Assembly: GCA_964291275.2 (NCBI GenBank)
Contig: OZ219799.1
Coordinates: 2,334,914-2,398,913, forward strand
Direction of reading: 5' to 3'
Source: Rhodothermales bacterium
GTDB lineage: Bacteria; Bacteroidota; Rhodothermia; Rhodothermales; Bin80
DNA: 64,000 bases
How positions within the stretch are numbered: position 1 is the stretch's first letter; each line of letters opens with the position of its first letter. The notes under the pieces were generated by a model. It did no database searches and was not told the origin of the DNA. It saw only the letters and a list, made by a program, of their open reading frames with translations. Both the position numbers and the translations under genes were made by a program. Below are positions 1 to 32,021 of this stretch, one piece after another.

Positions 1-861
1 TTCTTTACCTACCCGAGAAGGCTTGGCCACGAAATATCTGTCAAGGTACTGGAGTCCGCGGGTGACCTCGCTCCGGGTACGTATTGTGCGGTTAATCCGT
101 ACATGTTCTGTGCAGATTGCCAGGCCTGTAGACGCGGAGACACAAATTGCTGCTGCAAACTCCGTGTGCTCGGGATTCATCAGGAAGGTGCGTTCACGAG
201 GCTTATGAGGTTGCCTGCATCAAGCCTCCATCCAAGCGACTCACTTCCACCCGCTATACTTGCACTTGTTGAACCCCTTGTGGTTGGCTATCATGCGGTA
301 AAACGTGCCCGTATTGGTGCACGGGATCAAGTTCTGGTTGTAGGGCAGGGCCCAATTGGGCTTTCTTGTGCACTAATGGCGAAAGCTCTGGGGGCGAATC
401 TTGCAGTGATGGATATTCGGGAAGATCGCAGGCAATCGGGACGTCGATTGACTAAGCGTGTATTGACTCCCGGCGAAAATTCAGAGATTGTGGTACGGGA
501 GGCTTTCGACGGTGATTTACCTGTTACCGTGATCGAAGCAACCGGCAATCGTGCTGCCGTGCATCAAAGTTATCAGTTGGTTGCACCTGGCGGGACCCTG
601 GTGTTTGTGGGATTGTATATCGGGAGCTTCGAATTTGATGATCCAGATTTTCATCGAAGGGAATTAACTTTGCGGGCCAGTCGTAATGGCACTCACGATG
701 ATTTTTGTGCGGTTATGTCACTGCTGGAAACCGGCACCATAGATCCAAGTTGGTTCATCACCAATCAGATTCCATTCACTGAGGTACCAGACCGAATTAA
801 GGCACTTGATGGTGCCCTAGGCTGTATAAAAGCCATTGTTGATATGAACGCTGCATGCTAG
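1..861 (+). CDS. Zn-dependent medium-chain (MDR) alcohol/polyol dehydrogenase; 5' end lies outside the window
   Basis: Frame 1 is open from nt 1. It has a GHE motif at 25-33, a structural-Zn Cys cluster (CADCQACRRGDTNCC) and a VVGQGPIG dinucleotide-fold motif. Stop is TAG 859-861. Confidence 0.85.
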   Translation, partial: FFTYPRRLGHEISVKVLESAGDLAPGTYCAVNPYMFCADCQACRRGDTNCCCKLRVLGIHQEGAFTRLMRLPASSLHPSDSLPPAILALVEPLVVGYHAVKRARIGARDQVLVVGQGPIGLSCALMAKALGANLAVMDIREDRRQSGRRLTKRVLTPGENSEIVVREAFDGDLPVTVIEATGNRAAVHQSYQLVAPGGTLVFVGLYIGSFEFDDPDFHRRELTLRASRNGTHDDFCAVMSLLETGTIDPSWFITNQIPFTEVPDRIKALDGALGCIKAIVDMNAAC

Positions 862-873
862 GCCATGCGCCCT

Positions 874-881
874 TTAACAAA
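874..881. repeat. Left copy of the 8-bp target-site duplication ttaacaaa of the IS1595-type transposon
   Basis: An identical octamer occurs at 7318-7325. Both copies directly abut the 38-bp IR tips (gggaat / atcccc). 8 bp is the usual TSD length for the IS1595 family. Confidence 0.8.
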
Positions 882-919
882 GGGAATTATATACGTGTGT
901 ACCCAAATTTCTGAAAAGT
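882..919 (+). repeat. IRL of the IS1595-type transposon (gggaattatatacgtgtgtacccaaatttctgaaaagt)
   Basis: 888-919 is the exact reverse complement of 5382-5413. 882-887 (gggaat) matches the reverse complement of 7312-7317 (atcccc) at 5 of 6 positions. Confidence 0.9.
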
Positions 920-965
920 TTGCAGTAAATTACAAAAATCTGCAACACTTTACTTAGAATGTCGT

Positions 966-986
966 ATATTTGGGTACACACATACA
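966..986 (-). repeat. Internal partial copy of the IR in IRR orientation; with IRL it forms a roughly 100-bp MITE-like IR pair
   Basis: atttgggtacacac (968-981) is identical to the IRR core, with further partial matches on both sides. It ends 11 nt before the transposase ATG. Confidence 0.6.
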
Positions 987-996
987 AATAAATACG

Positions 997-1968
997 ATGG
1001 CAAAGCGTAGAACAGGACCAGGGAAATCGTACCGGCAAGGGCTTTCATGGGTAAAGCTCATGAAGATGTTTCCTGACGACGCAACTGCTGAAGCATGGTT
1101 TGCAAAGCAACGCTGGGGCAATGAACCCATGTGTCCACACTGCCAATCAACGAATGTGCAAACCGGGGCAAAACATCATATGCCTTACCGCTGCCGTAAT
1201 AAGGAATGCCGTAAGCGGTTCAGTGTGCGTATTGGAACGGTTATGCAAGACTCGAAGTTGGGCTATCAAGTTTGGGCAATGGCCATTTACATACTGGATA
1301 CAGGGATCAAGGGCGTATCCAGCATGAAGTTGCACCGTGATCTGGATATTACGCAGAAGACTGCCTGGCACTTAGCTCACCGTATTCGTAAATCATGGGA
1401 TACGGAACTTGAAGAGTTTGAAGGGCCGGTCGAAGTGGATGAAACGTATGTAGGGGGCAAAGAAAAGAATAAGCACGAGAACAAGAAACTCAACGCAGGT
1501 AGGGGCCCCGTAGGTAAGACGGCCGTAGTAGGTATCAAAGACAGGGAGACACTGCAAGTCCAAGCAAGGGTCGTACAGGATACCACCGCAGATACGCTCA
1601 CAGGCTTCGTGTACAGCACTTCGAGGCAGGAGGCACAAACCTACACCGATGACGCAAAAGCGTACCAGGCGTTGAAGAGAGCTGCACACGCGACCGTTAA
1701 GCACTCCGTCAAGCAATACGTGGACGGAATGGCGCACATCAACGGCATGGAATCGTTCTGGTCGTTACTGAAGCGTGGCTACTATGGCACCTATCACAAG
1801 ATGTCGCCCGAGCATCTCCAGCGCTACGTAGATGAGTTTGTTGGACGGCACAATGTACGTCGACTGGATACCGTCGAGCAAATGGAATTGACCGCACAGG
1901 GGCTTGTAGGGAAGCAGCTCACGTACAATATGCTCACCCGGAAAGTTGGCAAAACAGCAAGGACATGA
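997..1968 (+). CDS. IS1595-family (ISXO2-like) DDE transposase with N-terminal zinc ribbon
   Basis: Motifs CPHCQS...YRCRNKECRKRFSV (zinc ribbon) and VEVDETYVGGKEKNKH, GKTAVVGIKDR, typical of IS1595 transposases. The ATG at 997 is preferred over the TTG at 970. Confidence 0.85.
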   Translation: MAKRRTGPGKSYRQGLSWVKLMKMFPDDATAEAWFAKQRWGNEPMCPHCQSTNVQTGAKHHMPYRCRNKECRKRFSVRIGTVMQDSKLGYQVWAMAIYILDTGIKGVSSMKLHRDLDITQKTAWHLAHRIRKSWDTELEEFEGPVEVDETYVGGKEKNKHENKKLNAGRGPVGKTAVVGIKDRETLQVQARVVQDTTADTLTGFVYSTSRQEAQTYTDDAKAYQALKRAAHATVKHSVKQYVDGMAHINGMESFWSLLKRGYYGTYHKMSPEHLQRYVDEFVGRHNVRRLDTVEQMELTAQGLVGKQLTYNMLTRKVGKTART

Positions 1969-2011
1969 GTTATCACCAGATTGCACGCAAAGAACTCATA
2001 GCTTAAGCAGT

Positions 2012-3016
2012 ATGTCCTATAATCGCAATTTACACAAAGCAAAGGCATCTGCAAATGATGAGTTTTACACGCAACTGGAGGACATTGAAAACGAACTGCG
2101 ACACTACAAATCACACTTCAAGGACAAGGTGGTCTATTGCAACTGCGATGATCCACGGGTGAGCAACTTCTTCAAGTATTTCTCTTCTAATTTTGAGTTC
2201 TTGGGTCTCAGCAAGCTGATTACCACCTGCTACAAGAATCAGCAGTCAGATTTATTTTCGCAGCATGATTCCGAGCGGGCAATCAGCTTGGAGTACACTG
2301 GTGATAAAGATGGGGACATGGTGGTCAGTCGTGAGGAAATTGCGGTGACGCACCTGCGGGGCAATGGATGCTTCAAAAGCCCAGAATGTATTGAGCTTCT
2401 GAAGCAGGCAGATATTGTCTGCACGAATCCTCCATTTTCGCGATTCAAAGAGTATGTCGCGAAACTAATGGAGTATGAGAAGAAAATCTTAATTATTGGA
2501 AACATGAACGCGGTCACCTATAAGGAGATATTCCCGCTCATCAAAAATGACAAGCTATGGTATGGACCAAGCATATCAAGTGGTGACAGAGAATTTGGAG
2601 TCCCTGACCATTATCCCCTAACGGCGGCATCCTCTCGGGTTGACGACCAAGGCAGGAAGTACGTTCGTGTAAAGGGAGTGCGTTGGTTCACGAACCTGGA
2701 TCACAGAAAACGCCATGAGGAGTTATTTCTGTACAAAGAGTACTCCCCTGAGGAATATCCGAAATATGATAATTACGACGCGATTGAGGTGGGCAGGACG
2801 AAGAATATTCCAGGAGACTGGCTTGGTGTAATGGGCGTTCCAATCACATTCCTAGATAAGTACAATCCAGATCAGTTTGAGATACTGGGAGCAACGGAAA
2901 GTGAGGGTAAAGGCTTTTCATGTGGCCTTTGGAATCCTCAAAGTAGAGTTGCACAAGCAGTTGTCAATGGACGGAGGGTTTACAAACGGCTCTTTATCCG
3001 TAACAAACAGCTCTGA
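2012..3016 (+). CDS. N6-adenine DNA methyltransferase, EcoRI-methylase-like family (passenger gene)
   Basis: N-terminal DEFYT motif and CTNPPFS (NPPF catalytic motif IV). The ATG at 2012 avoids overlap with the transposase. Its stop is 3 nt before the next ATG. Confidence 0.7.
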   Translation: MSYNRNLHKAKASANDEFYTQLEDIENELRHYKSHFKDKVVYCNCDDPRVSNFFKYFSSNFEFLGLSKLITTCYKNQQSDLFSQHDSERAISLEYTGDKDGDMVVSREEIAVTHLRGNGCFKSPECIELLKQADIVCTNPPFSRFKEYVAKLMEYEKKILIIGNMNAVTYKEIFPLIKNDKLWYGPSISSGDREFGVPDHYPLTAASSRVDDQGRKYVRVKGVRWFTNLDHRKRHEELFLYKEYSPEEYPKYDNYDAIEVGRTKNIPGDWLGVMGVPITFLDKYNPDQFEILGATESEGKGFSCGLWNPQSRVAQAVVNGRRVYKRLFIRNKQL

Positions 3017-3019
3017 TCG

Positions 3020-4171
3020 ATGAAGATTAAACCCGTGGAAATCACCGTTCGCCAGCTTGTGAAAGGCTACGCTGATGATGGAGAGGGCGGTGTGACTGGA
3101 TATAGCGGCCGGCTTGATATCCGCCCCCCATACCAGAGGGAATTCATCTACAATGCTAAGCAGAGGGATGCGGTAGTTGATACGATCTCAAAAGGTTACC
3201 CCCTGAATGTCATGTATTGGTCCGTGCGGGCTGATGGAAGATTCGAGATTATTGATGGACAGCAGCGCACCATTTCGATTGCCCGATATGTGAAGGGAGA
3301 TTTCTCGGTAGGGGATCTCTTTGACTGGAGGGACAAACGCCAATTCCATCGTCTCCAAATAGATGAGCGGGAGAAGATTTTAGACTACAAGCTACATATA
3401 TATCAATGTACTGGAACTAATAGTGATCGTTTGAAGTGGTTCGAGAGGATCAATATAGCTGGCGTGAAGCTGACACAGCAGGAGATTCGGAACGCGGTCT
3501 ATTATGCTCCATGGTTGGAAGAAGCGAAGCGAATATTCAGCAGGAAAGGCTGTCCTGCTTCTGATGTTGGTAAAGGCTATATCAAAGGTAGAGCAGACCG
3601 GCAGGAATACTTGGAACGCGCTATTCAGTGGATTAACCAAGGAGATGTAGTTGGCTATATGAATCGAAAGGAGGGGACGGAAAATGCCCCCAACGGAAAG
3701 AGACTTTGGGATCACTTCGTGTCCGTGATCAACTGGGTAAACGCAACATTCACGGAATATCGCGAAGAGATGGAAGGCGTGGATTGGGGTGATCTTTATC
3801 TCAAATTCAAGGATGCGTCCTTGGAACTTGTTGAGATAGAGGGAAAGATAGCAGAGTTAATGAAATGTGACGAAGTCACGAAAAAGGGAGGTATCTATCC
3901 ATTCGTACTAACAGGTGACAAGAAACATCTGAGTGTCCGTAATTTCAAAAAAAACGACCAGCGTGAGGCTTACGAAGAGCAAAAAGGGATTTGTCCAGAT
4001 TGTGGAGACAAATTCAAAGAAAGAGACATGGATGCGGACCATAAAATCCCTTGGGTCAACGGCGGCCCCACCATTCTAAGCAACTGCCAAATGATGTGTA
4101 GAACCTGTCATAAAGAAAAAACCGCAAGACAGTTACGAGGGTTCTGGATATCATCAGGAAAATCAGAATAG
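3020..4171 (+). CDS. DUF262 (ParB-like/GmrSD N-terminal) domain fused to a C-terminal HNH endonuclease
   Basis: IIDGQQRTISI (the DGQQR hallmark of DUF262). The C-terminus reads DADHKIPWVNGGPTILSNCQMMCRTCHKEKT (HNH). It is translationally coupled to the methyltransferase. Confidence 0.75.
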   Translation: MKIKPVEITVRQLVKGYADDGEGGVTGYSGRLDIRPPYQREFIYNAKQRDAVVDTISKGYPLNVMYWSVRADGRFEIIDGQQRTISIARYVKGDFSVGDLFDWRDKRQFHRLQIDEREKILDYKLHIYQCTGTNSDRLKWFERINIAGVKLTQQEIRNAVYYAPWLEEAKRIFSRKGCPASDVGKGYIKGRADRQEYLERAIQWINQGDVVGYMNRKEGTENAPNGKRLWDHFVSVINWVNATFTEYREEMEGVDWGDLYLKFKDASLELVEIEGKIAELMKCDEVTKKGGIYPFVLTGDKKHLSVRNFKKNDQREAYEEQKGICPDCGDKFKERDMDADHKIPWVNGGPTILSNCQMMCRTCHKEKTARQLRGFWISSGKSE

Positions 4172-4230
4172 AATCGGTTTCAAAAATCTTGGGTACTATC
4201 GTATACAAATTCCTACTTCCCTGTCATTGA

Positions 4231-5166
4231 ATGACAATTTCGATAACAACACAAGCATCTGAGATACCAGAGAATCTGCCTCCGTCAGACTTTGGATTTT
4301 ATATAGATTATGACCAAAGGGATAGAGCAGCCAAACATATTTTTGAGGCAACCTATAGATTCATTGAGGCTTGTGAAGCATCCAGTCAAGCTCTTCTGGG
4401 ATCCGCCGGGGTATCTATTGAGCCAGTTATTGTGTTGGAAAACATCACAACGGGGTCAATTAAAACATGGTTCAAGATATTTTGGCAAGAGGAAGGAGAG
4501 GAAGCAGCCAAAAGTGGAAGCCTAAAGAGATTCCTTGTCACACTTTCCGTTGAGGGAATCAAGAAAATTTTGAGTAATACCAATAATGTTGATGATCCGC
4601 CAGAACTAAGGAATCTTCAAAATGATCTGTTCGAGTTGGTCAATGAAGTAGACATGGACACTCTTTCGCTACGTTTTCCGATTCCTGATAAAAACCTTAT
4701 AGATGTAATTACACGATTTGAGTCTGTAAAAGAACTTCTTGGGCCTGAAGACAGGGCGGCATTGGTACTATCAGATGATACTACTATACGTCTTAATCAG
4801 TCTGTTTCCGTGAACATTGAGAAACTCAAAAAAGAGGCTACAAAGGAAACTCTGGTGAATCCTACGATCACTATGATTCTCATTGTAAGAAAACCTGATT
4901 ATCTTGCGAATAGTCAATGGTCATTTCGACATGAAAGAAGAACCATTGCTGCGACTATTGAAGACCGGAAGTGGTTGAGCGAATTTCAAGGCCGAAAGAT
5001 AGACGTTAGACCGGGAGACGCCCTCAAGTGTCAAGTCAGAATTGAGACATCATACGGGTTCGACAACGAGGTTATTTCCCAAAAGCATTGTATTGAGAAA
5101 GTAGAAGAGGTAATCGAGAATGAACAAGGAGGAACGCAGATGCCTCAGTTATTTGGAAGAGAATAA
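4231..5166 (+). CDS. Hypothetical protein, 311 aa, third passenger gene
   Basis: A long ORF co-oriented with the two genes upstream, 60 nt downstream of the nuclease. No motif I recognise. AT-rich like its neighbours. Confidence 0.55.
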   Translation: MTISITTQASEIPENLPPSDFGFYIDYDQRDRAAKHIFEATYRFIEACEASSQALLGSAGVSIEPVIVLENITTGSIKTWFKIFWQEEGEEAAKSGSLKRFLVTLSVEGIKKILSNTNNVDDPPELRNLQNDLFELVNEVDMDTLSLRFPIPDKNLIDVITRFESVKELLGPEDRAALVLSDDTTIRLNQSVSVNIEKLKKEATKETLVNPTITMILIVRKPDYLANSQWSFRHERRTIAATIEDRKWLSEFQGRKIDVRPGDALKCQVRIETSYGFDNEVISQKHCIEKVEEVIENEQGGTQMPQLFGRE

Positions 5167-5189
5167 TTTCCCAAAACCAAAATCTCACC

Positions 5190-5354
5190 ATGAAACCAAC
5201 CAAATCCACTCCCTCTACCAAGAAGTCTAATGCTCCGCGTGGACGTCCAGCCAAGGATTTGGCACACATTCAGCGGTCAATCCAGTTGGGTTCTCCCGAG
5301 GAGCTGGCGAAGAAGATTTTGAACACTCCACCTGGGAAAATCAAGTTGCGGTAG
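5190..5354 (+). CDS. Possible 54-aa basic protein with an AT-hook-like PRGRPAK motif
   Basis: ATG 5190 to TAG 5352-5354, below the ORF-track cutoff. Sequence MKPTKSTPSTKKSNAPRGRPAKDLAHIQ.... It lies just inside IRR. Support is weak. Confidence 0.25.
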   Translation: MKPTKSTPSTKKSNAPRGRPAKDLAHIQRSIQLGSPEELAKKILNTPPGKIKLR

Positions 5355-5381
5355 ACAAAAACGGTAATGAATTCAACGAGG

Positions 5382-5413
5382 ACTTTTCAGAAATTTGGGT
5401 ACACACGTATATA
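5382..5413 (-). repeat. IRR of the IS1595-type transposon (inner 32 bp); the outer 6 bp (atcccc) are displaced to 7312-7317 by the intron
   Basis: Exact reverse complement of 888-919. Confidence 0.9.
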
Positions 5414-7311
5414 GTGTGCCACGAAAATACATATGAGGTGAAGCGATGACTTAGCTGAGATGTATTGAACTGTGCAAGGGATGGGGGTCGGCCCCCCGCA
5501 ACCGCTGTACAGGCGGAGGTTGCAAACCACCCACAGCTGCGGTATTTAAGAGGTATCGTGGTGAGCGTGTAGGGAAAAGGCAGGTGTAGGAATCTGTTAG
5601 GTGAGGATCGTAGAGTCGAATGAAAATGAACCATGGATGACGTGTCGAAAAGAATTAGATGATGGTCGAAACCGGGGTCGTATATTAATCCTGGGACGAG
5701 GTTGGCGGGGACCTGTTTACTGGCCAACTGGCCTCCGGCATATACATGGCGAGAATGCGATTTGGGCCCTTGTATGGAACGTGGGAACATGTCGGAGTGA
5801 TGCGAAGGGAGCGTGTCAAGCGGGCGCCCCCCGTGAGACATTGAGTACCAAAGCACTCCACATGGGCGGATCACCTCGTAGTAGTGAGGAAGCTTCTGTA
5901 ATGGAAGTAGAGCGAAGGGGGTGAACCATGCAGCAGGACGCGAGGGAGCAACCGAGAGGGAGGACTTCAACGCAAAATGCAAAGCCGTTTCCGGTGACCA
6001 AGCGACAAGTTTGGGAGGCATGGAAGCGGGTGAAGGCGAATCAGGGCGGGGCAGGGATTGATCAACAGTCTATTGCGGATATCGAGGAGAATCTTGCGGA
6101 CAATCTCTACAAGATTTGGAATCGGATGGCATCGGGCAGTTATCATCCGAAGCCGGTGCGCCGCGTGAATATTCCGAAGTCAGACGGAGGGGTTCGTCCC
6201 TTGGGAATACCCACGGTGGCAGATCGGGTGGCACAGATGGTGGTGAAACAAGTTTTGGAGCCGGAACTGGAACGCGTGTTCCATCCGGATTCCTATGGGT
6301 ACCGACCGAACAAATCGGCTCATGCTGCGCTCCGGCAGACGCGAAGGCGGTGCTGGGAACGGGCCTGGGTACTGGACATGGATATCAAGTCCTATTTTGA
6401 CACGATAGACCATGCGCTGTTGATGAAAGCGGTCCGACGACATACGGATCAGAAGTGGGTGCTCTTGTACATAGAGCGCTGGCTGACGGCACCGGTGATT
6501 CACCCAGACGGGACGGAAGCGGCTCGGGACATTGGGACACCCCAAGGCGGGGTCATCAGTCCACTGTTGGCCAATCTGTTTTTGCACTACTCGTTTGATA
6601 AGTGGATGGAGCGGTATTACCCGCAGATTCCATTTGAGCGATATGCAGATGATATTGTGTGCCACTGCACGAGTGAGGAATAGGCGCACGAACTTTGGCA
6701 GGTGCTCAAGGGACGTTTTACGGCCTGTAACTTAAAGTTACACCCGGATAAGACCCGGATCGTATACTGCAAGAGTGCGCGCCGAGAAGGCACGTATCCG
6801 GAGATTTCCTTTGATTTCTTGGGCTACACGTTTAGACCTCGAATGACAATGAGTCGCGGGGGCAAGATCTTTCTTGGGTTCAATCCAGCGATAAGCCGAA
6901 AGGCGGCGAAAGCCATACGGGAGACCATTTACAGTTGGGGATTGGCTCGCATGAGTCCATTCTCAATGGCACACATTGCAAGCAGGATAAATGCCGTGGT
7001 GCGGGGATGGATTGCCTATTATGGCGTATTCTTCAAATCGGAACTGAAAAAGGTTTTGAGAAGCATTGACCAACACCTCATCCGATGGATGATGCGGAAG
7101 TATAAGCACTTCCGGGGACATTGGAGACGGTCGTGGCGATGGTTAACGAGAATTGCTCGTCAAAATTCCGGTATATTCGTGCATTGGGCGTTTCTTTACG
7201 GTTCACCTTTGTTCAATTCCAAACGGTTGCATGGTAAGAGCCGCGTGAGTTGAGAGGCTCACGCGCGGTTCTGTGAGAGCCCGGGGGTGAAATTCCCCCG
7301 GGCTACTTGAC
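5414..7311 (+). mobile_element. Group II intron, copy 1 (ribozyme plus RT/maturase ORF in domain IV)
   Basis: The 5' end is GUGUG. A canonical 34-nt domain V lies at 7238-7271 (AGC triad, 2-nt bulge, GAGA tetraloop). The domain VI hairpin has a bulged A and a terminal AC at 7311. The boundaries are independently confirmed because removing 5414-7311 restores the transposon IRR. Confidence 0.85.
5928..7253 (+). pseudogene. Group II intron RT/maturase (IEP) interrupted by one in-frame TAG (6681-6683)
   Basis: The two ORFs 5928-6683 and 6702-7253 share a frame. Their total length (1326 nt) equals that of the intact copy at 30427-31752. The sequence has YADD and RT motifs and an X domain (RGWIAYYG) but no En domain. 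The stop replaces the Gln codon seen in copy 2. Confidence 0.8.
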
Positions 7312-7317
7312 ATCCCC

Positions 7318-7325
7318 TTAACAAA
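7318..7325. repeat. Right copy of the 8-bp target-site duplication ttaacaaa
   Basis: Identical to 874-881 and immediately outside the IRR tip at 7312-7317. Confidence 0.8.
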
Positions 7326-7339
7326 CCTATAACACATTG

Positions 7340-8035
7340 ATGCAAGCAGAATACACACTTCGTCGGCCGGTTATCGAGCTTGATGTCAGCGCGCGGGCGG
7401 CATTCATCATGCACACGTACGGACACCTGGCGGGGGCGATCGGCTGCTTTGTTTTGCTGGAGATGTTCTTTTTCCAGAGCGGGTTGGCTGCGAGCATTTA
7501 TCAGGCACTTGCGGGCGTCAATTGGCTTTTTGTGTTGGGTGGCTTTCTTGTTGTTGGATGGCTTGCGAGTCGTGCAGCACACCAGGCTGTATCAAGGGGA
7601 GTCCAATATCTGGCATTAGGAGGGTTTGTGTTGGCGGAGGCGATCATATTTGTCCCTTTGCTCTATACGGCACAGGCTGTGGCTCCTGGTGCGATTGAGA
7701 GTGCCGCCTCGGTGACCATCATGGGTTTTGTGGGCCTAACGCTTGTGGCGTACTTCTCTCGCAAAGATTTTTCTTTTTTGGGGAGCCTGTTGCGCTGGGG
7801 GTTTGTTGTAGCGCTCGTGCTGATTGCTGCCTCTGTACTGTTCGGGTTGCATCTGGGGACGTTCTTCAGTGTTGGGATGATTGCACTTGCAGGTGGTGCT
7901 ATCTTGTACGACACGTCTAATGTGCTGCACAGGTATCCCGTCGACCGTCATGTAGGGGCGGCGCTCCAGCTGTTTGCTTCTGTCGCACTCCTGTTTTGGT
8001 ATGTTTTGTCGATTTTCATCGGCGGACGTGACTAA
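7340..8035 (+). CDS. Bax inhibitor-1/YccA family inner-membrane protein
   Basis: A seven-TM-like hydrophobic profile. Family-typical segments AFIMHTYGHLA and GAILYDTSNVLHRY. Confidence 0.75.
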   Translation: MQAEYTLRRPVIELDVSARAAFIMHTYGHLAGAIGCFVLLEMFFFQSGLAASIYQALAGVNWLFVLGGFLVVGWLASRAAHQAVSRGVQYLALGGFVLAEAIIFVPLLYTAQAVAPGAIESAASVTIMGFVGLTLVAYFSRKDFSFLGSLLRWGFVVALVLIAASVLFGLHLGTFFSVGMIALAGGAILYDTSNVLHRYPVDRHVGAALQLFASVALLFWYVLSIFIGGRD

Positions 8036-8043
8036 GCTTTCTC

Positions 8044-9048
8044 ATGCAGTATGACCTGATTGCGATGGGCCGTTCGTCCATCGACCTGTACTCGGATGAT
8101 ATCGGGGCGCCGTTCCCGCAGATCACCAGTTTTTCTGCGTATGTGGGAGGGTCACCCACCAATGTATGTGTGGGTGCGAGCCGGCTTGGAATGAAAACCG
8201 CACTGCTCACCGCGGTTGGGGAGGATCCAGTTGGAGATTTTGTATTGAATTTTCTCCAGAATGAGAGGGTGGAGACGAAGTATATCTCACGCAAGCCCGA
8301 CAGGCGGACAAGTGCAGTCATCTTGGGCATCGAACCACCAGAGCGTTTCCCTCTGGTATACTACAGAGATAACTGCGCTGACAATGCGCTGAGTATTGAA
8401 GATGTATTAGCTACTCCAATAAATCAGGCGAAAGTTTTCGAGTTTGCCGGCACGAATCTTGCCCAGGAATCCAGCCGAAGTGCGACGCTATTCGCTGTAG
8501 AGCGTGCTGTCCGTTCCGATGTAACTGTTGTTTTTGATCTTGATTTTCGTCCAGATCAATGGCATGATCCCCGCGCATTCGGGGTTACAGTAAGGAACGT
8601 GCTTGCCAGCGTTGATATCTTGCTCGGCACTCAGGACGAGATTAACGCCGCAGTCCTTGAGGATCCCGCCCAGATAGAATTGACGCATCAGCAGGTATCG
8701 GATGCTCGTGTGGGAGGGAATGTTGATTCAGCCATTCAGACATTATTTGATTGGGGCGTTGAATCTATAGTGGAGAAATGCGGAGCCGAGGGGGTCCGTA
8801 TTCATGAGCGGGGGAAGTCTCCGATTAAAGTGCCGGGGTTCCCGGTCGAGGTACGCAATATTCTTGGGGCCGGAGACGCTTTCGCCGCGGGATTCATTTA
8901 TGGAGTCGTTCATGGTTGGACCTACTATGATGCGGCTCGACTTGGTAATGCCTGCGGTGCTATTGTGGTGACCCGGCACGGATGTGCTAACTTCATGCCC
9001 ACGTTCGAGGAAGCGACTGCATTGATGGACGCTCAAGATGCGTCGTAG
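8044..9048 (+). CDS. iolC: PfkB-family sugar kinase, probable 5-dehydro-2-deoxygluconokinase
   Basis: N-terminal DLIAMGRSSIDLY, C-terminal GAGDAFAAGF (PfkB signature), 334 aa. Other iol genes occur in the window. Confidence 0.7.
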   Translation: MQYDLIAMGRSSIDLYSDDIGAPFPQITSFSAYVGGSPTNVCVGASRLGMKTALLTAVGEDPVGDFVLNFLQNERVETKYISRKPDRRTSAVILGIEPPERFPLVYYRDNCADNALSIEDVLATPINQAKVFEFAGTNLAQESSRSATLFAVERAVRSDVTVVFDLDFRPDQWHDPRAFGVTVRNVLASVDILLGTQDEINAAVLEDPAQIELTHQQVSDARVGGNVDSAIQTLFDWGVESIVEKCGAEGVRIHERGKSPIKVPGFPVEVRNILGAGDAFAAGFIYGVVHGWTYYDAARLGNACGAIVVTRHGCANFMPTFEEATALMDAQDAS

Positions 9049-9872
9049 TTGTATCAAGGGCGCAGACTACGGTGCCGTGGGTAAAGTGGTTGAATCAATC
9101 AATAGCCGTTATTAATTGGAACCCGTTAGTCGGGGGTAGTAATTTTTTTTCTATGAGCATCAACAAAAGAAGACAGCAATCTTTTGCAAGGAGTTCGTAC
9201 TGTTATGCATGGCCTGAAGCTGAGCGACCAATAGTAATCCCACGAACCTGACTGAGTGTACATACTCGTGTATTGAATTATGTACACCTGTCAACGGAGG
9301 TTACCCTCATAACTGGACTACGTCAATCCATAACACCACCACGGCTTCGCTGACAAAGAGCGGATCTCAAATATCCGCAGTGCTTCCATCCGCACCGCAT
9401 GCAGCGTGACTTCATCCCCGTATTCTGACAACGCAATCATCCCCAATACCTGTACGGGCATCTCTTTCTAGTCCAGAATTTCTTCTGGTGTACATTCCGC
9501 ATCCAGACCGACCGAGCCCTATCCTCGCAACGACACGACCATATCCAAATTGCAGCCTAAATTCGAATCAACTTGCCAAAATGACGCAGTAGAGACAGTC
9601 GCAGCGATTGACCAACCCCGCCAGCCTCGCGGAACGTCTGATCCAGTTGGAAAACTCATCTGATCGGAACATGATACTATCGTAAAGCGCGGTAAATGAA
9701 AGGTTGAAACTCCAAAGCAACTACAATCCAGGTCAAATAGGTTCCAACTAACTCTGACACTACGCCAGACAGGGGGGAGAAGCAGCGCTGGCAATGCGCG
9801 TGTTGGTTATCTTAATGATCGTAGTCCTGCCTGCGTCGGCCGCTTGCCTTTTTTCGTCATTACACGCGCCGG

Positions 9873-11543
9873 ATGATGGTCCTTCTTTCTGCATGCAAAC
9901 CCAGGGACACGCGGTTTTTCGCCCATTCGATCCTTCCATTGGTCCTGGTCTTACTTGGGCCGGCGGCTCTTGCGCAGGAGGAGCCAACGTACAAGGCCGG
10001 AGTCATCGTGGTCCAGTTTGCTCCAGAGGTCTCCATTGCCAACAAGGCTGCCCGCGCCAGACTGCAGGACTTTGATCGGCGGGCAGCGGGTTATGGCGTC
10101 CACCTGATTGAGCGGGTGTATCCGTTTCTGGACCACGTGGAGCCGACGCCGAAGACCCGTCGCAACCTTCTGGCTCTCCGCCGAACGTATTACGTGCACT
10201 ATACTGCCGACGCCCTACCGAAAGAGGTCGCTGCCGATCTGGCTTCGGTGCCGGGCGTGGTGTATGCCGAGCCGGTGCTCATTAACCGGACGCAGGCGGA
10301 CTACGGGCAGCGCGTGGACCCAAATGATCCACGCTTTGGCGATCAACCGGCGCTTCGCCTGTTGCGGTTGCCAGAGGCGTGGGATGTGGTCAAGGGAGAA
10401 GGCATGAGCCCGCCGGTGGTGATCGCTATAGTGGAGCTTGGGGGCAGCGATTGGCGCCACGAAGACCTTCTGGCCAACGTGTGGACCAACGCGAATGAGA
10501 TACCAGGCAACGGCATAGACGACGATAACAACGGGTTCATCGATGATGTGCACGGGGCGAATCTTAGGAACGGAGATGACACCAATAACGATCCATTCGA
10601 GCCGGGGCAAAGCAGCAGGCATGGCACGGCGGTTGCGGGCGCGGCCGGTGCCGTGACCAACAACGGCATCGGGGTGGCTGGGGCGGCCTGGAATGCCCAG
10701 CTCATGCATATTCGCGGCAGCTATGATGGCATCCTCTATGCGGCCGCCAACGGGGCGGACATCATCAACACGAGCTGGGGTAGTTTGCGGGACACCGAGG
10801 ATCAGATCAAGCTCCCTAACCAGACGCTGGATTTGGCCACGGACATGGGCGCGCTCGTGGTGGCATCGGCCGGTAACGACAATCGCAACAACGACCTTTT
10901 TTGGCACTACCCGGCCAGTAATCCTCGAGTGCTGTCGGTGGGCGCCACGGAGAGGGACACGCGCCGGCGGGCGGGCTCTTCGAACTACGGGAAGCTGGTG
11001 GACGTCTTTGCACCGGGCGGCATTCTGACGACCGCCCCCTACAACGGCTATAGGCATGCCAGCGGCACGTCGTTTTCGTCGCCGCTGGCGGCCGGCGTGG
11101 CGGCATTGGTGAAGACAAGGTTTCCCGAGATGACGCCGGACGCCCTGCGGGAGCATATTCGGCTGACGAGCGACAACATAGACGCGGAGAACCCGGCTGA
11201 TGCCGGGCAGCTGGGACGCGGGTTTGTCAATGCGCTGTCCGCTGTTCGGGCGCCGTCCGTACCAGAGTCCTTTGCCGTGCACGGCAACTACCCCAATCCG
11301 TTCCGGCAGTCCACGCGCCTCGTGTTTGACCTTCCCTGGCCTGCTAGCGTGACGGTCGAGGTCATGGACATAACGGGCCGGCGCGTGTTTACCGTGCCGG
11401 CAACCGGGAAATCTGCAGGATGGAAGCACACGATACCGCTGAGCGGCCGTGCGATGTCCTCCGGCTTGTACCTATACCGCCTGACTGCTACTTCGCCGGA
11501 AGGAAGCTCCGTTCACACAGGCAGCTTCGTACGCATACGGTGA
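9873..11543 (+). CDS. Secreted S8 (subtilisin-like) serine peptidase with T9SS C-terminal sorting domain
   Basis: A signal peptide, a catalytic His context (HGTAVAGAAG) and Ser context (SGTSFSSPLAAG). The C-terminus reads NYPNPFRQSTRLVF...YLYRL (Por/T9SS CTD). Confidence 0.85.
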   Translation: MMVLLSACKPRDTRFFAHSILPLVLVLLGPAALAQEEPTYKAGVIVVQFAPEVSIANKAARARLQDFDRRAAGYGVHLIERVYPFLDHVEPTPKTRRNLLALRRTYYVHYTADALPKEVAADLASVPGVVYAEPVLINRTQADYGQRVDPNDPRFGDQPALRLLRLPEAWDVVKGEGMSPPVVIAIVELGGSDWRHEDLLANVWTNANEIPGNGIDDDNNGFIDDVHGANLRNGDDTNNDPFEPGQSSRHGTAVAGAAGAVTNNGIGVAGAAWNAQLMHIRGSYDGILYAAANGADIINTSWGSLRDTEDQIKLPNQTLDLATDMGALVVASAGNDNRNNDLFWHYPASNPRVLSVGATERDTRRRAGSSNYGKLVDVFAPGGILTTAPYNGYRHASGTSFSSPLAAGVAALVKTRFPEMTPDALREHIRLTSDNIDAENPADAGQLGRGFVNALSAVRAPSVPESFAVHGNYPNPFRQSTRLVFDLPWPASVTVEVMDITGRRVFTVPATGKSAGWKHTIPLSGRAMSSGLYLYRLTATSPEGSSVHTGSFVRIR

Positions 11544-23277: not shown

Positions 23278-24156
23278 ATGCCGGAGATTCCAGAAGTACG
23301 CCTTGATACTGCGAGTGAGCTATGGGATCAACTTAGCTCCACCAAGAGGCAATCCGATTCGGACAATCGAATAATTTATCGGGGCCACGCAAACGCTAAG
23401 TGGGAGATAAAGCCAACGTTTTTGCGGCAGAAGTCTCTCCAACTACAGCAAGAGCTGTGGTCTGCTCCTCTTACTTGTGAGCTCTTGGCATGGATAGAAT
23501 TCAGGAAATTGCGACTCTTCATCCACTGTTGTGATGAAAACGGAGTGGAGGTTCCCAACGACTCGCTTGAGTTGCGCAATACAGTATTCTCTGACATTAA
23601 CTTCAGGAAGCATCACGAATTTCCGTCTACTTGGCCCTCTGACGAGTTCTTAGAAATAATGGCATTTGGGAGGCTGCACGGGTTGCCTACAAGACTCTTG
23701 GACTGGTCCACTAATCCATATGTCGCCGCCTATTTTGCTGCGAGCGAGGCATTGTTCTCACAAGACGATTGGGTGCCAGGTCAGAGAATTGCAATATTTG
23801 AGCTAGACTTCGGGCCTGTAGAAACCACGTATTTGGGAAAGGTTAGACTTCTCCAAATCAGGGGCTCCATTTCGCCCAACATTGTAGTGCAACAAGGCAT
23901 GTTTACCTTGCACCCTTTAGTTGGGAATAAGAACGAAATGGCAGAAGTAAAAAGCCTTGAAAAGTACCTGTCACCCCGCTCTGAACCACCAATAAAAGCG
24001 TTTACAATTCCAGTATGTCAAGTTCCAGAACTTTGCAAGCTGTGCGACACTTTCGGCTATAATGCCGCTCGCCTATACCCCAGCCCTGAGGGGGCCGTTA
24101 GGGCCATGCGAGAATCCGATATGTACAGACTTGCACGGAAGAATGGTCAAGGATAA
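23278..24156 (+). CDS. FRG-domain protein
   Basis: IIYRGHANAKWEIKPTFLR (Y/FRG motif), GRLHGLPTRLLDWSTNPYVAAYFA and VVQQGMFTLHP match the conserved blocks of the FRG domain. Confidence 0.7.
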   Translation: MPEIPEVRLDTASELWDQLSSTKRQSDSDNRIIYRGHANAKWEIKPTFLRQKSLQLQQELWSAPLTCELLAWIEFRKLRLFIHCCDENGVEVPNDSLELRNTVFSDINFRKHHEFPSTWPSDEFLEIMAFGRLHGLPTRLLDWSTNPYVAAYFAASEALFSQDDWVPGQRIAIFELDFGPVETTYLGKVRLLQIRGSISPNIVVQQGMFTLHPLVGNKNEMAEVKSLEKYLSPRSEPPIKAFTIPVCQVPELCKLCDTFGYNAARLYPSPEGAVRAMRESDMYRLARKNGQG

Positions 24157-24362
24157 GAGACCAGATCACATTAAGGGTAGGCTAGCTTCGCGGCCCAAGT
24201 TGGAAAAATACCCTGCGAGACAAGATCCACCTAAGAGTAATCCAATGTATGATCAATCAAGGGACGGCTACTCTACGGTCCTAGTGTATTTGACGACCAC
24301 GCTTAGCTGTACCGTACCTATGTCGGCAGAGGCGTTCGGAATATGCTTTGAACCTGGACTAG

Positions 24363-26048
24363 ATGAGGGTTATGAAAATTACATCCATCGAAATACATAA
24401 CTTTCGGAGCATTCTGGAGTGCCGTCTGTCGTGTCGCGACATGCTCGTTCTGCTCGGCCAGAACAACCATGGAAAATCAAATATTATCGGTGCCTTGGAT
24501 TTTGCACTGAACTCGTCAAAGCCGAATATAGACGACCTCTTTGCCCTCGCTGAGCCTGGCGATAAAACGATATGGGTAGAAGTCTCATTTGGTCGGTTGA
24601 CCGACCAAGAAAAGACGACATGGAGAAAATATGTTCAAGCTGATGGCATTTTCTGCTTTCGGAAAACAGCTAGTTTTGACGATGAAGACAGGGTCGACGT
24701 CAAATACAACGGCTATGTGTCTGAACCTAACGAAGAATGGTTGAAAGCAGATAACGTGCGTAACTACATGAAGCGCGACGTAGTTTCTGGAACACCGCTG
24801 AGTCCCTATATTCCGGAGTCAGGACGAGTCACCAAAGCTATGATTGTAGCGGCCCAAGAGCAGTATATCAGAGAGCACAGTGAGGATTTAAATTTCAGAG
24901 TAGCCCTCGAGGAAGGCCCATTGCTTGGCCAGAAAAACGTAGCGAAAGGCGTTCTGCCAGAATTTTTCCTAGTTCCCGCTATCCGTGATTTGAGCGACGA
25001 GTCGAAAGTCAGGAATACTGCACTCTTCGGGAAACTTCTTACCTATACAGTCAAGGAAATGGCGTCCAGGAATCCTCTCTTTCATAGCATTGAAGAACAA
25101 CTCAGCGAGTTGGTCAATGTGCTCAATGCAGGGCCGAAAACCGAGGATCGCCCTCAGCAGCTCACTGATCTTGAGTCTTCTATTCAGCAAGAACTAACTG
25201 GATGGGATGTGCGTGTTTCTGTGGAAGTGACACCGCCGGACATCTCTAAAATCATTGAATTGGGGACGGAAATCCATCTCAACGATGGCCTTAAAACCTT
25301 GGCCAAACGCAAAGGACATGGTCTACAACGTGCCGTGATCTTTGGTCTCATGAAAGCATGGGCAAGGGTAATGCGCGGGTCTGATGCAGCGGACGGAAGC
25401 ATTACTGCACGCAGAGCGTCTGAATCAGTTATTTTCGCAATAGAAGAACCCGAGCTTTTCTTGCATCCACATGCACAACGTACTTTTAACAAGGCCCTTC
25501 GAGTACTTTCAGAAGGTACTAATAGTCAGGTTATCGTTAGCAGCCATTCCACACATTTCGTGGACTTGGACGACTACCGAGGTATTGCCCTGATTCGAAA
25601 AGAATCTGTCGAGAAGGGCACTATCTCGGTACAATGCACTGAGGACTTATTTGAAGGAGAAGCTGACCGAAAGCGCCGATTTCATATGGCCACATGGGTG
25701 AATCCAGATCGCGGCGAGATGCTCTTCGCTCGCCGAGTAGCATTCGTTGAAGGTGAAACTGGAAAATTACTCTTCCCGTTCCCTGCCGAGAAAATGGGTT
25801 GCCATTCGGAGGATGTTTCCATAATTGATTGTGGTTCGAAAAACAACATCCCGCTCTATGTAGCCATTGCTGAGGCCTTCCATCTCAATTACGTCGTTGT
25901 GCATGATCAGGACTCGTTGTCCAATCTGAGTTCCCAAAAATTGAACACTAAAATCAAGGAATTGGTAGGCGAGACAGGTTCGGTCGCAGTCTTACGACCA
26001 GATTTTGAGGACTGTGGTCAGGTGCCCAAGAGTGAGGGTCAACGATAA
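24363..26048 (+). CDS. OLD-family nuclease: N-terminal ABC-type ATPase (AAA_15-like) plus C-terminal TOPRIM
   Basis: MKITSIEIHNFRS start (the alternative ATG at 24372 is more likely the true start). Walker A is GQNNHGKSN and Walker B/D-loop is IFAIEEPELFLHP. TOPRIM-like motifs are VAFVEGETG and VVHDQDS. Confidence 0.8.
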   Translation: MRVMKITSIEIHNFRSILECRLSCRDMLVLLGQNNHGKSNIIGALDFALNSSKPNIDDLFALAEPGDKTIWVEVSFGRLTDQEKTTWRKYVQADGIFCFRKTASFDDEDRVDVKYNGYVSEPNEEWLKADNVRNYMKRDVVSGTPLSPYIPESGRVTKAMIVAAQEQYIREHSEDLNFRVALEEGPLLGQKNVAKGVLPEFFLVPAIRDLSDESKVRNTALFGKLLTYTVKEMASRNPLFHSIEEQLSELVNVLNAGPKTEDRPQQLTDLESSIQQELTGWDVRVSVEVTPPDISKIIELGTEIHLNDGLKTLAKRKGHGLQRAVIFGLMKAWARVMRGSDAADGSITARRASESVIFAIEEPELFLHPHAQRTFNKALRVLSEGTNSQVIVSSHSTHFVDLDDYRGIALIRKESVEKGTISVQCTEDLFEGEADRKRRFHMATWVNPDRGEMLFARRVAFVEGETGKLLFPFPAEKMGCHSEDVSIIDCGSKNNIPLYVAIAEAFHLNYVVVHDQDSLSNLSSQKLNTKIKELVGETGSVAVLRPDFEDCGQVPKSEGQR

Positions 26049-26497
26049 GGAAAGCCACTCGCCGCTTTAGACCACTTTGATTCAGTTACAGCCGATCAGA
26101 TTCCACAGCAACTCGTTGACATGATTCGGCTAGTTTACGGAGATACATAATAAATATGCATCCTCTCCGGTCCTGTCCACACGGATATGATCTCGCTCCG
26201 TTTCTAGCAAGCATAGTCATTATAGAATCCCCTGCGCTTTCGCGGACTTTCACCTGCTACACTTATCAGTTAGATTGTCGGGTTGCTGAACTTTTCCCAC
26301 CCACGAACCATCCCAGAGCTGCTCAAGACCTAGCTTCAAAATAGGTCCTAAGTCCTATTTGTTACAAAGGCAAAGGAAAAACTGTCCGCACTGATCTCGG
26401 TCTCGCAACAACTTCGGGGTTCCCCGTTTAGGGGGAATTTACTCCGGTCCTCCCTTAAGCTGGCGCCACTTGTGACATCGGGATTCCATGGTTGTGA

Positions 26498-26830
26498 TCA
26501 GTACAGTTTATTTTTCTCGTGCTTAGCCATACATGTGGGCTGCACATGCAGCTTCAAGTTCCTTCTTAACCTGTCTGGAAAAGTCTGGGTTGCTAATCTT
26601 GGAGGCAACATTTCCCGCTTGTGCCACTGACATCGCTGAATCGGTGCCCGATCTCCAAATACTTCTCGAACTCCTTTCTGCAATCCCTTGCATCCATCTA
26701 ATAGAACCAGCAACGAGCCCGCAGGCTGGAAGCCTCGTTCCTGTGATTCTGGAGTAGTGCGACCACGCAGGTATGCGCTTCGGTTTTGGTTTCCATGAAA
26801 GTGAACTGACAGAAACCAACATACGGCATC
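26498..26830 (-). pseudogene. IS256-family (Mutator-like) transposase remnant, frameshifted and truncated
   Basis: LLDGCKGLQKGVREVFGDRAPIQRCQWHKRE matches the IS256 core (D..GL...I...FP....QRC..HK.RN). The continuation NVASKI...DFSRQVKKELEAA is in another frame. Both the N and C termini are missing. Confidence 0.65.
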
Positions 26831-26876
26831 CGAGTTCGAGGGTGCGCGTTGTGTATGACTACGTAGGGTATTTCAG

Positions 26877-27614
26877 ATGAGAGTGTCCAAGCGCGTTATC
26901 TTCGCCTTCTCAATGACCATGCTATCTGCTGTCTCCGCGGTGACCTTTGCTCAGCCAATCTGCACCGTAGAAGATCTCCCGCGCGAGGCGACTGGCCAAG
27001 GGCGGCTAGCAGTCAGGCTTGATGGCGCATGGCAGCTATTTACCCAAGACGAGGCCGGATCCGCATACATCATCGAAATCGGCGGGCTCCAGAGCCTGTG
27101 CATTGCTTGGGAAGCACCTCCCTACGACAATGCTCGCCGGCAGATCGTCTATGTTAGCACCAAATACAGAGACAAACAGCCGCTGTGGCTCTTTCGAAAC
27201 AATGCGGCAGCTGGTCTTCCATTCGTTGGCAACCTACTGGGCAACTGGAGCCGGACACCCGATGCCTCGGGTTTAGATCCCGATGAGGCTTTCAGAGAGT
27301 TTCATCGTAGCCTCCCTGAGGATCCTTCTGAGCCCCCGTGGAACAACCTTACCACTTGGCACGACACGTCGGTATGGTTGTCCAATGTTAGCAGCTACGA
27401 GTTGGTGGTTGGTGCCACAAACAGCCTGCCCGTGCTTCCCTACGGTTCGGAGCGACTATTGAGGCTTGCAGGACATCGTCCACTCACCTCATGGGTACCG
27501 TTTACAACCCGTGCTCCGTCTGGGCAAAACGAACTCCGCATAGCGGTTTCCTATACAGGTGATCTTGATAACCTCGGCCCGGATATCTACCAGTACGTAT
27601 TCCGAGTCAGGTAG
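26877..27614 (+). CDS. Hypothetical secreted protein (signal peptide)
   Basis: N-terminal signal sequence ending AVTFAQP; 245 aa; no recognisable domain. The stop is 8 nt before the next ORF. Confidence 0.5.
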   Translation: MRVSKRVIFAFSMTMLSAVSAVTFAQPICTVEDLPREATGQGRLAVRLDGAWQLFTQDEAGSAYIIEIGGLQSLCIAWEAPPYDNARRQIVYVSTKYRDKQPLWLFRNNAAAGLPFVGNLLGNWSRTPDASGLDPDEAFREFHRSLPEDPSEPPWNNLTTWHDTSVWLSNVSSYELVVGATNSLPVLPYGSERLLRLAGHRPLTSWVPFTTRAPSGQNELRIAVSYTGDLDNLGPDIYQYVFRVR

Positions 27615-27622
27615 CTCTGCCC

Positions 27623-28123
27623 ATGCGTATTAAACACGAAGCCCGCCAAGTACTGAACGCGTTTGTAGGTCTCTTCACTCAACCGTTTAAACAGGATATT
27701 AATGCCTCTTTGAAGGGAGCTGTCACTGCGATCCTGCTCGCCATGTTCCCCGGCTTACCACTCTTGCTCAACGGTGTAATCCAGATAGAGGCAACAAAAT
27801 TTGCCGCCATTAGTCTCGTGCTCGTCCTCTTTTGGGCACTCTTGACGGCTATCTTCACCAAGCAGGACAGGCGTGAGTTGGCGATTGCTCGTAACCTCAC
27901 CATCCTGTCCTTTTGGATCGCTGCCACATTGGTGATCGTCTATTTGGTGAACATCATAGTCCCCAATCCTCTTGATGGAGCCTTACGTCGGGGAGTTGCA
28001 ACGGCCATGCTTATCCCCTTGATCTTCATCCACATGATTTGCAACCTGCCTTGTTTTCCAGCACTGAGAGTGGCATTCTCCCTGTCGATCAGCACCGTTT
28101 TATTGGTTTGGATGGTACTGTAA
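27623..28123 (+). CDS. Hypothetical integral membrane protein (about 4 TM)
   Basis: Four hydrophobic stretches. It is tightly coupled to 26877-27614. Confidence 0.5.
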   Translation: MRIKHEARQVLNAFVGLFTQPFKQDINASLKGAVTAILLAMFPGLPLLLNGVIQIEATKFAAISLVLVLFWALLTAIFTKQDRRELAIARNLTILSFWIAATLVIVYLVNIIVPNPLDGALRRGVATAMLIPLIFIHMICNLPCFPALRVAFSLSISTVLLVWMVL

Positions 28124-28358
28124 TGGCGATGTGTCATGGATCACTCGCGTCCATGTGTGTGTTGACTGGCGGCCTGTGGATAACATGGATGTTCCAAGGT
28201 CGCAGGGAATCTCCATTGTTTTGCACCAGAATTCCTTCTGACATGTGTGGTTTTGCAGGGGTCTCAGCTGCTTCTAATTAATAGTCCGGCAATGATCTGC
28301 TAAGCCTGCGAAATGAATAAGTGTAATATCTTTACACTTTGAAGACTTGAGCCCCAGC

Positions 28359-28522
28359 ATGGATAAGTTGAAGATGCACACACCTGATCTGAGTCAGGAA
28401 AATATCCTGAAGATTCGTAGTGCCTTCCCCAGCTGCGTAACCGAGGTGTTCAACGAAGCGAGAGGAGAATTACGCCTAGCGGTGGACTTTGATCTGCTTC
28501 GCCAAAAATTGAGTAATCATAT
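28359..28522 (+). pseudogene. mod: Type III R-M methyltransferase (Mod), N-terminal 54 codons, cut off by an IS insertion
   Basis: MDKLKMHTPDLSQENILKIRSAFPSCVTEVFNEARGELRLAVDFDLLRQKLSNH is the conserved N-terminus of Type III Mod proteins. The reading frame resumes in phase at 32022 (IIEGPQERYRLDWPGKRQ). Confidence 0.8.
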
Positions 28523-28778
28523 GAGCTAGTTGCAAAACCCATTTTGTTGCAACTGGTGAATCGGCCAATTCGGGACATAAATGGGTCTGATTTTCTTGGA
28601 ATACGTGAATGATTGGCCTGTGTTCACCGCTTTCTTCGAAGCTGTGGGTGATTGACCTTCAACGAGGTGTTAACTTGGAGAATTTTGTCCACGATCCGTG
28701 CGGACTCTACGCATCGATCCCACGGCTTCTGTATTCCAGAACCCCCCAATTCTGTACGCGACCACTCGACGATCCGGT

Positions 28779-29909: not shown

Positions 29910-29915
29910 GGGAGA

Positions 29916-31810: not shown

Positions 31811-32021
31811 CTCCGGTTTTCGTGGAAAATTTCGACACTGATTGATACGAAATCCGGGGGACTCCGGTCCCTTTTTTAGGCCTATCGAGGGATGTTCCTA
31901 TGCTCGGGGCGGATACAAATCCCAATCACAATCGCCTCCTCTACCCGGAGGCACCAACCAGAAACCATGACCTCAAAATTCCAAAAAATCCCCCGATTTG
32001 GGAGTTTTGCAACTGGCTCAT

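Follow-up and report, generated by a model that had tools for sequence, protein, structure and literature searches.

Members of the IS1595 family of insertion sequences (ISs) usually produce 8-bp target duplications and encode a single transposase with Zn_Tnp_IS1595 and DDE_Tnp_IS1595 domains, IS1016 being the one subgroup that lacks the N-terminal zinc ribbon (PMC8101967). In a transporter IS, genes with no role in transposition are carried within the terminal inverted repeats (IRs) and travel with the element; according to the passages of later papers that cite Siguier et al. (2009), cargo-bearing IS1595 elements are the original examples (PMC3129680, PMC9330008, PMC11891212), and transcription regulators have been cited among IS1595 passengers (PMC11891212). 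In the transporter ISs of this family, in particular the ISNwi1/'ISNwi1+' subgroup of ISfinder (Siguier, Gagnevin & Chandler 2009), a single DDE transposase with an N-terminal zinc ribbon lies between terminal IRs with an 8-bp duplication, and the passengers are placed downstream of the transposase inside the IRs. Here we describe an element with the same organization in a 64,000-nt stretch of DNA from a Rhodothermales bacterium (GenBank assembly GCA_964291275.2, contig OZ219799.1, positions 2,334,914 to 2,398,913), which we call the window and whose numbering is used throughout. The window element differs from those transporter ISs in its cargo, a predicted two-gene restriction-modification (R-M) pair plus a candidate defence gene, and in its right IR, which is split by a group II intron.

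The segment 882–7317 is very probably a single insertion of an IS1595-family transporter IS of 4,538 bp that was later enlarged by the intron to 6,436 bp. The original prediction, made from the letters of the window, had called the element a cargo-bearing, transporter-IS-like variant. The cargo does lie inside the IRs, with three passenger genes between the transposase and the right IR and with the duplication and an empty site bracketing the whole unit. Since the transporter IS was already described in 2009, however, the element belongs to an established category and is not an unusual variant.

Ends of the element and the empty site

The ends of the element comprise the following features:

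874–881, no strand: left copy of the target-site duplication, TTAACAAA, 8 bp
882–919, plus strand: left inverted repeat (IRL), 38 bp, tip GGGAATTATATAC
5382–5413, minus strand: inner 32 bp of the right inverted repeat (IRR)
5414–7311, plus strand: group II intron, 1,898 bp, inside the IRR
7312–7317, minus strand: outer 6 bp of the IRR, ATCCCC, separated by the intron from the remaining repeat
7318–7325, no strand: right copy of the target-site duplication, TTAACAAA

The original prediction had proposed a perfect 32-bp inverted repeat (888–919 and 5382–5413) that extends to 38 bp (37/38) once the intron is removed, tips at 882 and 7317, an 8-bp direct repeat around the whole unit and insertion into a very short spacer between an alcohol dehydrogenase (ADH) gene and a BI-1 gene, and all of these boundaries were upheld. 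A repeat search gave 32-nt inverted arms with 100% complementarity, and a 31-mer of the arm, with up to three mismatches allowed, was found at only two places in the window (0 of 100 shuffled controls had a match). When the intron was removed in silico, the directly read IRL, GGGAATTATATACGTGTGTACCCAAATTTCTGAAAAGT, agreed at 37 of 38 positions with the reverse complement of 5382–5413 joined to 7312–7317, GGGGATTATATACGTGTGTACCCAAATTTCTGAAAAGT. The octamer TTAACAAA, likewise read directly, abuts both tips; with the positions set in this way, all eight bases would agree by chance at a rate of about 4^-8.

The tips are also defined by related elements at other loci. Those at L001/L002, L005, L006/L008, L098, L099 and L101 begin with GGGAATTATATAC or GGGGATTATATAC, the window's left tip recurring in L001, L002, L005, L006, L008, L098 and L099, and the GGGGAT variant of its right tip in L099. 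Perfect 8-bp duplications, all AT-rich, flank four relatives, each at a site of its own (cttttttt, ttactttt, ttaaatat and gaagatta). The shared tips therefore fix the element tip independently, and ATCCCC at 7312–7317 is the true outer end of the IRR.

An empty site was sought by scanning the GTDB species genomes with the BI-1 protein. This gave a match with 100% protein identity in MPNB01000040.1, 'MAG: Rhodothermaceae bacterium bin80' (locus L011). Positions 5107–5986 of this locus align with window positions 1–881 at 96.8%, and positions 5976–7813 align with 7315–9153 at 95.1%, with nothing between the two blocks. The junction reads ...GCATGCTA-GCCATGCGTCCTTTTACAAACCTATAACAC... and contains one octamer, TTTACAAA, so that the segment absent from bin80 is exactly 882–7317 plus one octamer copy. 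In L011 the dehydrogenase open reading frame (ORF) runs to 5967 and BI-1 begins at 5998, giving a spacer of 30 bp; the window spacer, rebuilt to its state before the insertion, is 31 bp. The bin80 ADH/BI-1 spacer is a true empty site, and the comparison of the restored junction with related genomes that the original prediction had suggested thus yielded a homologue with flanks 95–97% identical.

Transposase, backbone and related elements

Between the repeats, all genes are on the plus strand and the layout is IRL, subterminal IR-like site, transposase, cargo slot, 54-aa ORF and IRR:

968–984, plus strand: subterminal inverted copy of the IR core, ATTTGGGTACACACATA, 17 nt, 94% complementary to 892–908 and 12 nt upstream of the transposase ATG
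997–1968, plus strand: IS1595-family DDE transposase, 323 aa, intact, with an N-terminal zinc ribbon and a DDE domain
2012–3016, plus strand: passenger 1, predicted EcoRI-family N6-adenine DNA methyltransferase, 334 aa
3020–4171, plus strand: passenger 2, DUF262 (GmrSD_N/ParB-like) plus HNH predicted nuclease, 383 aa
4231–5166, plus strand: passenger 3, uncharacterised LAPAL-family/PDC-S42-like protein, 311 aa
5190–5354, plus strand: small basic ORF, 54 aa, with the motifs RGRP and PPGxIK

The transposase had been predicted to be of the IS1595 type, and it scored above the cutoffs of both Pfam domains and of the NCBIfam model: PF12762 (DDE_Tnp_IS1595; 2.8e-40, profile positions 3–153 of 153), PF12760 (Zn_ribbon_IS1595; residues 26–73, 27.7 bits against a cutoff of 25.4) and NF033547 (transpos_IS1595; 174.1 bits against a cutoff of 75). 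Alignment with seven homologues (65–85% identity) showed a full-length protein with no frameshift. Across the eight aligned sequences D218, E252 and K259 were invariant, as were the zinc-ribbon cysteines C46, C49, C66 and C71, and D148 was present in seven. This is the single transposase ORF between the 38-bp IRs, and plasmid homologues at 37–39% identity among the matches listed carry the PGAP label 'IS1595 family transposase'. By its domains, its IRs and the duplication, the window transposase is assigned to the IS1595 family. The tip GGGAATTAT and the E252-(7)-K259 spacing fit what we take to be the hallmarks of ISNwi1 (ends ggnnatTAT, DDEK), which is only a lead as to subgroup, and 4.5 kb falls within the ISNwi1+ size range, presumably about 1.75–4.75 kb.

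Eight related elements were sampled. The best transposase homologues (74–87% identity) came from Rhodothermaceae, Gemmatimonadetes and unlabelled metagenome contigs. Complete relatives are 2,642–2,966 bp long, with one of 4,576 bp owing to an intron, and the same 2,966-bp element is present at two different sites, L001 and L002. The closest counterparts to the window element are those at L001/L002 (2,966 bp), L005 (2,872 bp), L008 (2,642 bp) and L101, whose transposases are 76–83% identical to that of the window and which have the same tip, 8-bp AT-rich duplications, right-end small ORF, gene order and strand. They differ in carrying a single fused N6_N4 methyltransferase-HNH protein of 386–489 aa that is non-homologous to the window cargo, and in having no LAPAL-like gene. 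The methyltransferase and HNH parts form one protein in most relatives and two in the window element. The elements with the closest transposases (L098 and L099, 85%) have other cargo, either a Panacea/SocA module together with an uncharacterised 496-aa protein or small unknown ORFs. A metagenome scan with the transposase returned only seven loci, mostly partial, with no complete elements among them.

Two loci with related elements have further features of their own. In L099 (GCA_009836215.1, VXVW01000034.1), whose IR, GGGGATTATATACGTGTGTACCC, is the most similar to that of the window, the two-gene Panacea/SocA module (8055–9001) is found between the IRL and the subterminal site; cargo can therefore also lie to the left of the transposase gene. 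In L007, a copy of the 2,642-bp relative (6780–9421) lies in phage-like DNA beside tail tape-measure and Dit-like genes.

The 54-aa ORF, MKPTKSTPSTKKSNAPRGRPAKDLAHIQRSIQLGSPEELAKKILNTPPGKIKLR, had been counted in the original prediction as one of three to four passengers. Three passenger genes were confirmed and this fourth was not: the small ORF is clearly matched at the right end of L001–L009, and more weakly in L101 and L096, and all complete relatives examined carry it at that end, in elements with different cargo. DNA homology between the window and its relatives likewise covers the left end and the transposase gene and then resumes at the 54-aa ORF (seen against L002). As the ORF is kept at the right end across relatives, it is a backbone gene of the clade and not a passenger.

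Copies of the subterminal site are also found just upstream of the transposase start in L002, L005, L098 and L099 (9–18 nt), where they covary with each element's own IR. In L099 the site is about 900 bp from the IRL, and L008 has its second IR core in direct, not inverted, orientation. Both observations weaken a reading in which 892–908 and 968–984 simply form an RNA hairpin, and they favour 968–984 as a candidate transposase-binding or operator site. Each IR also contains an outward-facing match to a sigma-70-like promoter, TTCAGA-N18-TATAAT (886–915 on the minus strand and 5386–5415 on the plus strand). These are consensus matches only, and in the right-hand match the intron interrupts the −10 element.

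The group II intron in the right repeat

The intron splits the IRR after the sixth base from the tip and lies in the same orientation as the element genes. It begins with GTGTG at 5414 and ends with CTTGAC at 7311, and it gave full-length Rfam matches to RF01999 (group-II-D1D4-2; 5483–5602, 103 bits) and RF00029 (Intron_gpII, domains V/VI; 7236–7311, 55.9 bits). A reverse transcriptase (RT)/maturase ORF at 5928–7253 matches the Pfam families RVT_1 and GIIM. There is a second copy of the intron in the window (29916–31810), with 81% identical DNA and an intact protein that is 80.5% identical, and the homology between the two copies starts and stops exactly at the proposed boundaries. The Rfam and Pfam matches and the limits of the second copy thus agree on the predicted interval. 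In the first copy, the RT/maturase has an in-frame TAG (6681–6683) at codon 252, just after the YADD motif, where the paralogue has CAA, and is therefore probably inactive.

In one loop the two copies differ in a way that follows their targets. In this 13-nt loop, closed by a 5-bp stem, positions 5–9 are TATAT in the first intron, whose 5′ exon ends in ATATA; the same positions are TCTCC in the second, whose 5′ exon ends in GGAGA. We read this as pairing between exon-binding site 1 (EBS1) and intron-binding site 1 (IBS1), which makes both introns genuine retrohoming events. For the EBS2/IBS2 pairing, reading of the two copies gave no convincing assignment.

The intron of the window element shares with bacterial group II introns in mobile DNA the GTGTG...AC ends, the D1–D4 and D5/D6 domains, an RT-maturase ORF in domain IV, the sense orientation and an EBS1-IBS1 match to the 5′ exon. 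It differs from them in the nonsense codon of its RT gene and in its target, which is the terminal repeat of an IS, so that an end of the host element is disabled.

Both introns of the window lie within IS elements. The second is in an IS at 28515–32027 with IRs of about 24 nt (at 28515 and, inverted, ending at 32027) and an IS5/IS1182-like transposase on the minus strand (28779–29909); the intron, on the plus strand and with an intact 441-aa RT-maturase (30427–31752), lies antisense to the transposase gene, 6 nt ahead of its start codon. A further intron, of a different Rfam class (RF02005, D1D4-6; 10098–10321), interrupts the methyltransferase-HNH cargo gene of the relative at L006 (8769–13344), which is 4,576 bp long compared with 2,642 bp for the intron-free copy at L008. 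As this intron and that of the window element belong to different classes, introns have invaded the IS clade at least twice.

Cargo genes

The passenger module, predicted to be 3.4 kb long, is real and slightly smaller, at about 3.2 kb (1969–5189). A cluster look-up placed the transposase and all three passenger proteins on a single NCBI/ENA contig of 2.84 Mb. Passenger 1 matched PF13651 over its full length (1.9e-139) and the PADLOC model MTase_II (9e-125). Passenger 2, separated from it by 3 nt, matched PF03235, PF01844 and PADLOC REase_II (3.8e-115, positions 1–362 of a 372-position profile). The two genes are also adjacent at four other loci (L102, L103, L104 and L105; 50–88% protein identity), two of them on plasmids from Sulfitobacter and Aeromonas and two on other contigs, and are predicted to form a type II R-M pair. 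The pairs on Sulfitobacter pDSM14862_g and Aeromonas caviae p1 have the same two genes in the same order, with abutting or overlapping frames and 50–59% protein identity to those of the window. They differ in lying on plasmids or in prophage-like DNA, not inside an IS, and in having no third, LAPAL-like gene.

For passenger 3, the Pfam search of the window proteins gave no match. It scored 71.7 bits against NCBIfam NF053583 (LAPAL_fam; cutoff 60), and its C-terminal residues 200–304 matched the PADLOC candidate PDC-S42 (1.5e-9). An AF2 model of the protein was confident (pLDDT 86.8, pTM 0.79); with Foldseek, this model had no match in the PDB better than E = 0.035, and in BFVD it matched only uncharacterised phage proteins (best E = 2e-8). 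A homologue with 56% identity stands alone beside an unrelated IS in another genome. Literature searches for IS1595 elements with R-M passengers, and for PDC-S42/LAPAL, found nothing relevant.

The guanine-cytosine (GC) content of passengers 1–3 is 45%, 46% and 41% (40.8% for passenger 3), compared with 51% for the transposase and small ORF and 50% for the window. This lower GC suggests that the cargo is of foreign origin, possibly acquired in two steps. An inverted repeat at 2030–2052 and 5136–5158 was considered as a boundary of the cargo cassette and rejected: its exact core is 9 nt, and about 100 such matches are expected by chance per 7 kb.

Two of the other loci with homologues of the cargo have IS1595-type sequences nearby. 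In L104, the methyltransferase and DUF262-HNH pair (6982–9173; 60–64% identical) has a solitary IS1595-type tip, GGGAATTATATCC (10058), some 900 bp away, and a 78%-identical transposase seems to be encoded in the same genome (a 3,745,182-bp contig); the locus may represent an element related to that of the window that has since decayed. In L096 (Ga0209022_1000166), at least seven tandem EcoRI-family methyltransferase paralogues, 50–58% identical to that of the window, are arranged head to tail (approximately 441–8262 and 9001–9900) beside an IS1595 transposase homologue and an RGRP small ORF, which is an unusual array.

Formation of the locus and alternative explanations

From what is known of the family, a DDE transposase would have bound both 38-bp repeats and placed the entire unit in the 31-bp spacer that separates the alcohol-dehydrogenase-like gene from the BI-1 gene, at the AT-rich octamer TTAACAAA, with staggered cuts 8 bp apart being repaired to give the duplication. 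The group II intron would later have retrohomed into the right repeat, guided by the EBS1-IBS1 pairing. We favour this order because otherwise the transposase would have had to act on an end with its outer 6 bp lying 1.9 kb from the remaining repeat. As the intron is removed from RNA only, the right end stays split in the DNA, and the element is probably now immobile at the DNA level although its transposase gene is intact. The element also now parts BI-1 from its upstream gene, so BI-1 expression would rely on read-through or on new promoters. The R-M pair would guard the host against foreign DNA and make losing the element costly.

Several points weigh against this account. To our knowledge, the transposition chemistry of IS1595 elements has no biochemical characterisation. 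The original prediction had suggested looking for further copies of the IR or of the whole element; the window and the metagenome and viral collections yielded none, and exact searches of the two collections with the 20-nt IR core gave no match. The window element is thus known from one site, compared with two for its 2,966-bp relative at L001 and L002, and the mobility of this exact combination of cargo rests on one insertion and its empty site. At L007, the octamers flanking the relative match at only five of eight positions. The nuclease and methylase activities, and cutting that is blocked by methylation, are predictions from profile matches only, and the DUF262 plus HNH layout also recalls type IV (GmrSD-like) enzymes, so that any methylation dependence may run in either direction.

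The alternative that survives best concerns the role of the cargo. The methyltransferase and HNH nuclease might serve the element's own life cycle, as an addiction module that kills cells from which the element is lost or by homing-type cutting of unmodified empty sites, with the 54-aa AT-hook-like protein as an accessory DNA-binding factor. The cargo slot is filled by a fused N6_N4 methyltransferase-HNH protein in four distinct relatives (L001–4, L005, L006–9 and L101) and by a non-homologous methyltransferase with a separate HNH nuclease in the window; in addition, the EcoRI-family methyltransferase array of L096 has a related transposase beside it, and the small ORF is kept throughout. Set against this recurrence, L098 and L099 have other cargo and no methyltransferase in the assembled part, R-M genes often ride on mobile elements of many kinds, and the sample amounts to only eight elements. 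We consider such a role possible but unlikely. The broader proposal that the clade is a dedicated shuttle, with a fixed backbone (the transposase, the operator-like subterminal site and the 54-aa AT-hook-like protein) and an exchangeable slot preferentially filled by methyltransferase and HNH modules serving the element itself, is somewhat more doubtful still.

A degenerate compound transposon, or a chance juxtaposition, would place a 1.1-kb IS1595 element beside unrelated R-M genes, the right repeat being the remnant of a deleted IS. The GC of the cargo is indeed lower than that of the backbone, and at L104 and L105 the pair occurs without an adjacent IS1595 transposase. However, no trace of a transposase lies near the right end, which consists of the small ORF and IRR as in all complete relatives, and repeat searches revealed no second IRR between 1969 and 2011, where a 1.1-kb element would have to end. 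Relatives with other cargo share the single-transposase layout, with 8-bp duplications around the whole unit, and the empty site lacks exactly 882–7317. A compound origin is therefore very improbable. Precise excision in the bin80 lineage, rather than gain in the window lineage, is the least credible explanation of the empty site: DDE cut-and-paste elements are able to excise, and nothing more specific speaks for it, but a footprint or both duplication copies normally remain, whereas bin80 has a single clean octamer, TTTACAAA, which is one base off both window copies of TTAACAAA, as fits duplication of the window lineage's own allele.

Other genes of the window

Outside the element, the region 23278–36955 looks like a defence island. 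It contains genes for an FRG-domain protein (23278–24156), an OLD-family AAA_15 plus TOPRIM ATPase (24363–26048) and an N6_N4 DNA methyltransferase (31998–33833), followed by an ORF of 1,035 aa (33848–36955).

Significance

A single insertion of a transporter IS thus remains the best explanation of 882–7317, and current understanding of IS1595 elements and transporter ISs is not overturned by it. The small ORF and subterminal site, the recurrent methyltransferase/HNH cargo and the intron-split terminal repeat are details that may be new. The locus provides a base-exact case, verified by an empty site, of a single IS moving a small R-M/defence package, here in a Rhodothermaceae lineage that is uncultivated. 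For annotation the case is of use, since the transposase, its cargo, the 54-aa ORF and the split repeat would, without it, be listed as genes with no connection. The leads it offers for the family are a small ORF and subterminal site that define the clade, a cargo in which methyltransferase and HNH functions recur, and introns that have hit these elements at least twice, in the window element so as to hold it, in all likelihood, at its present site.

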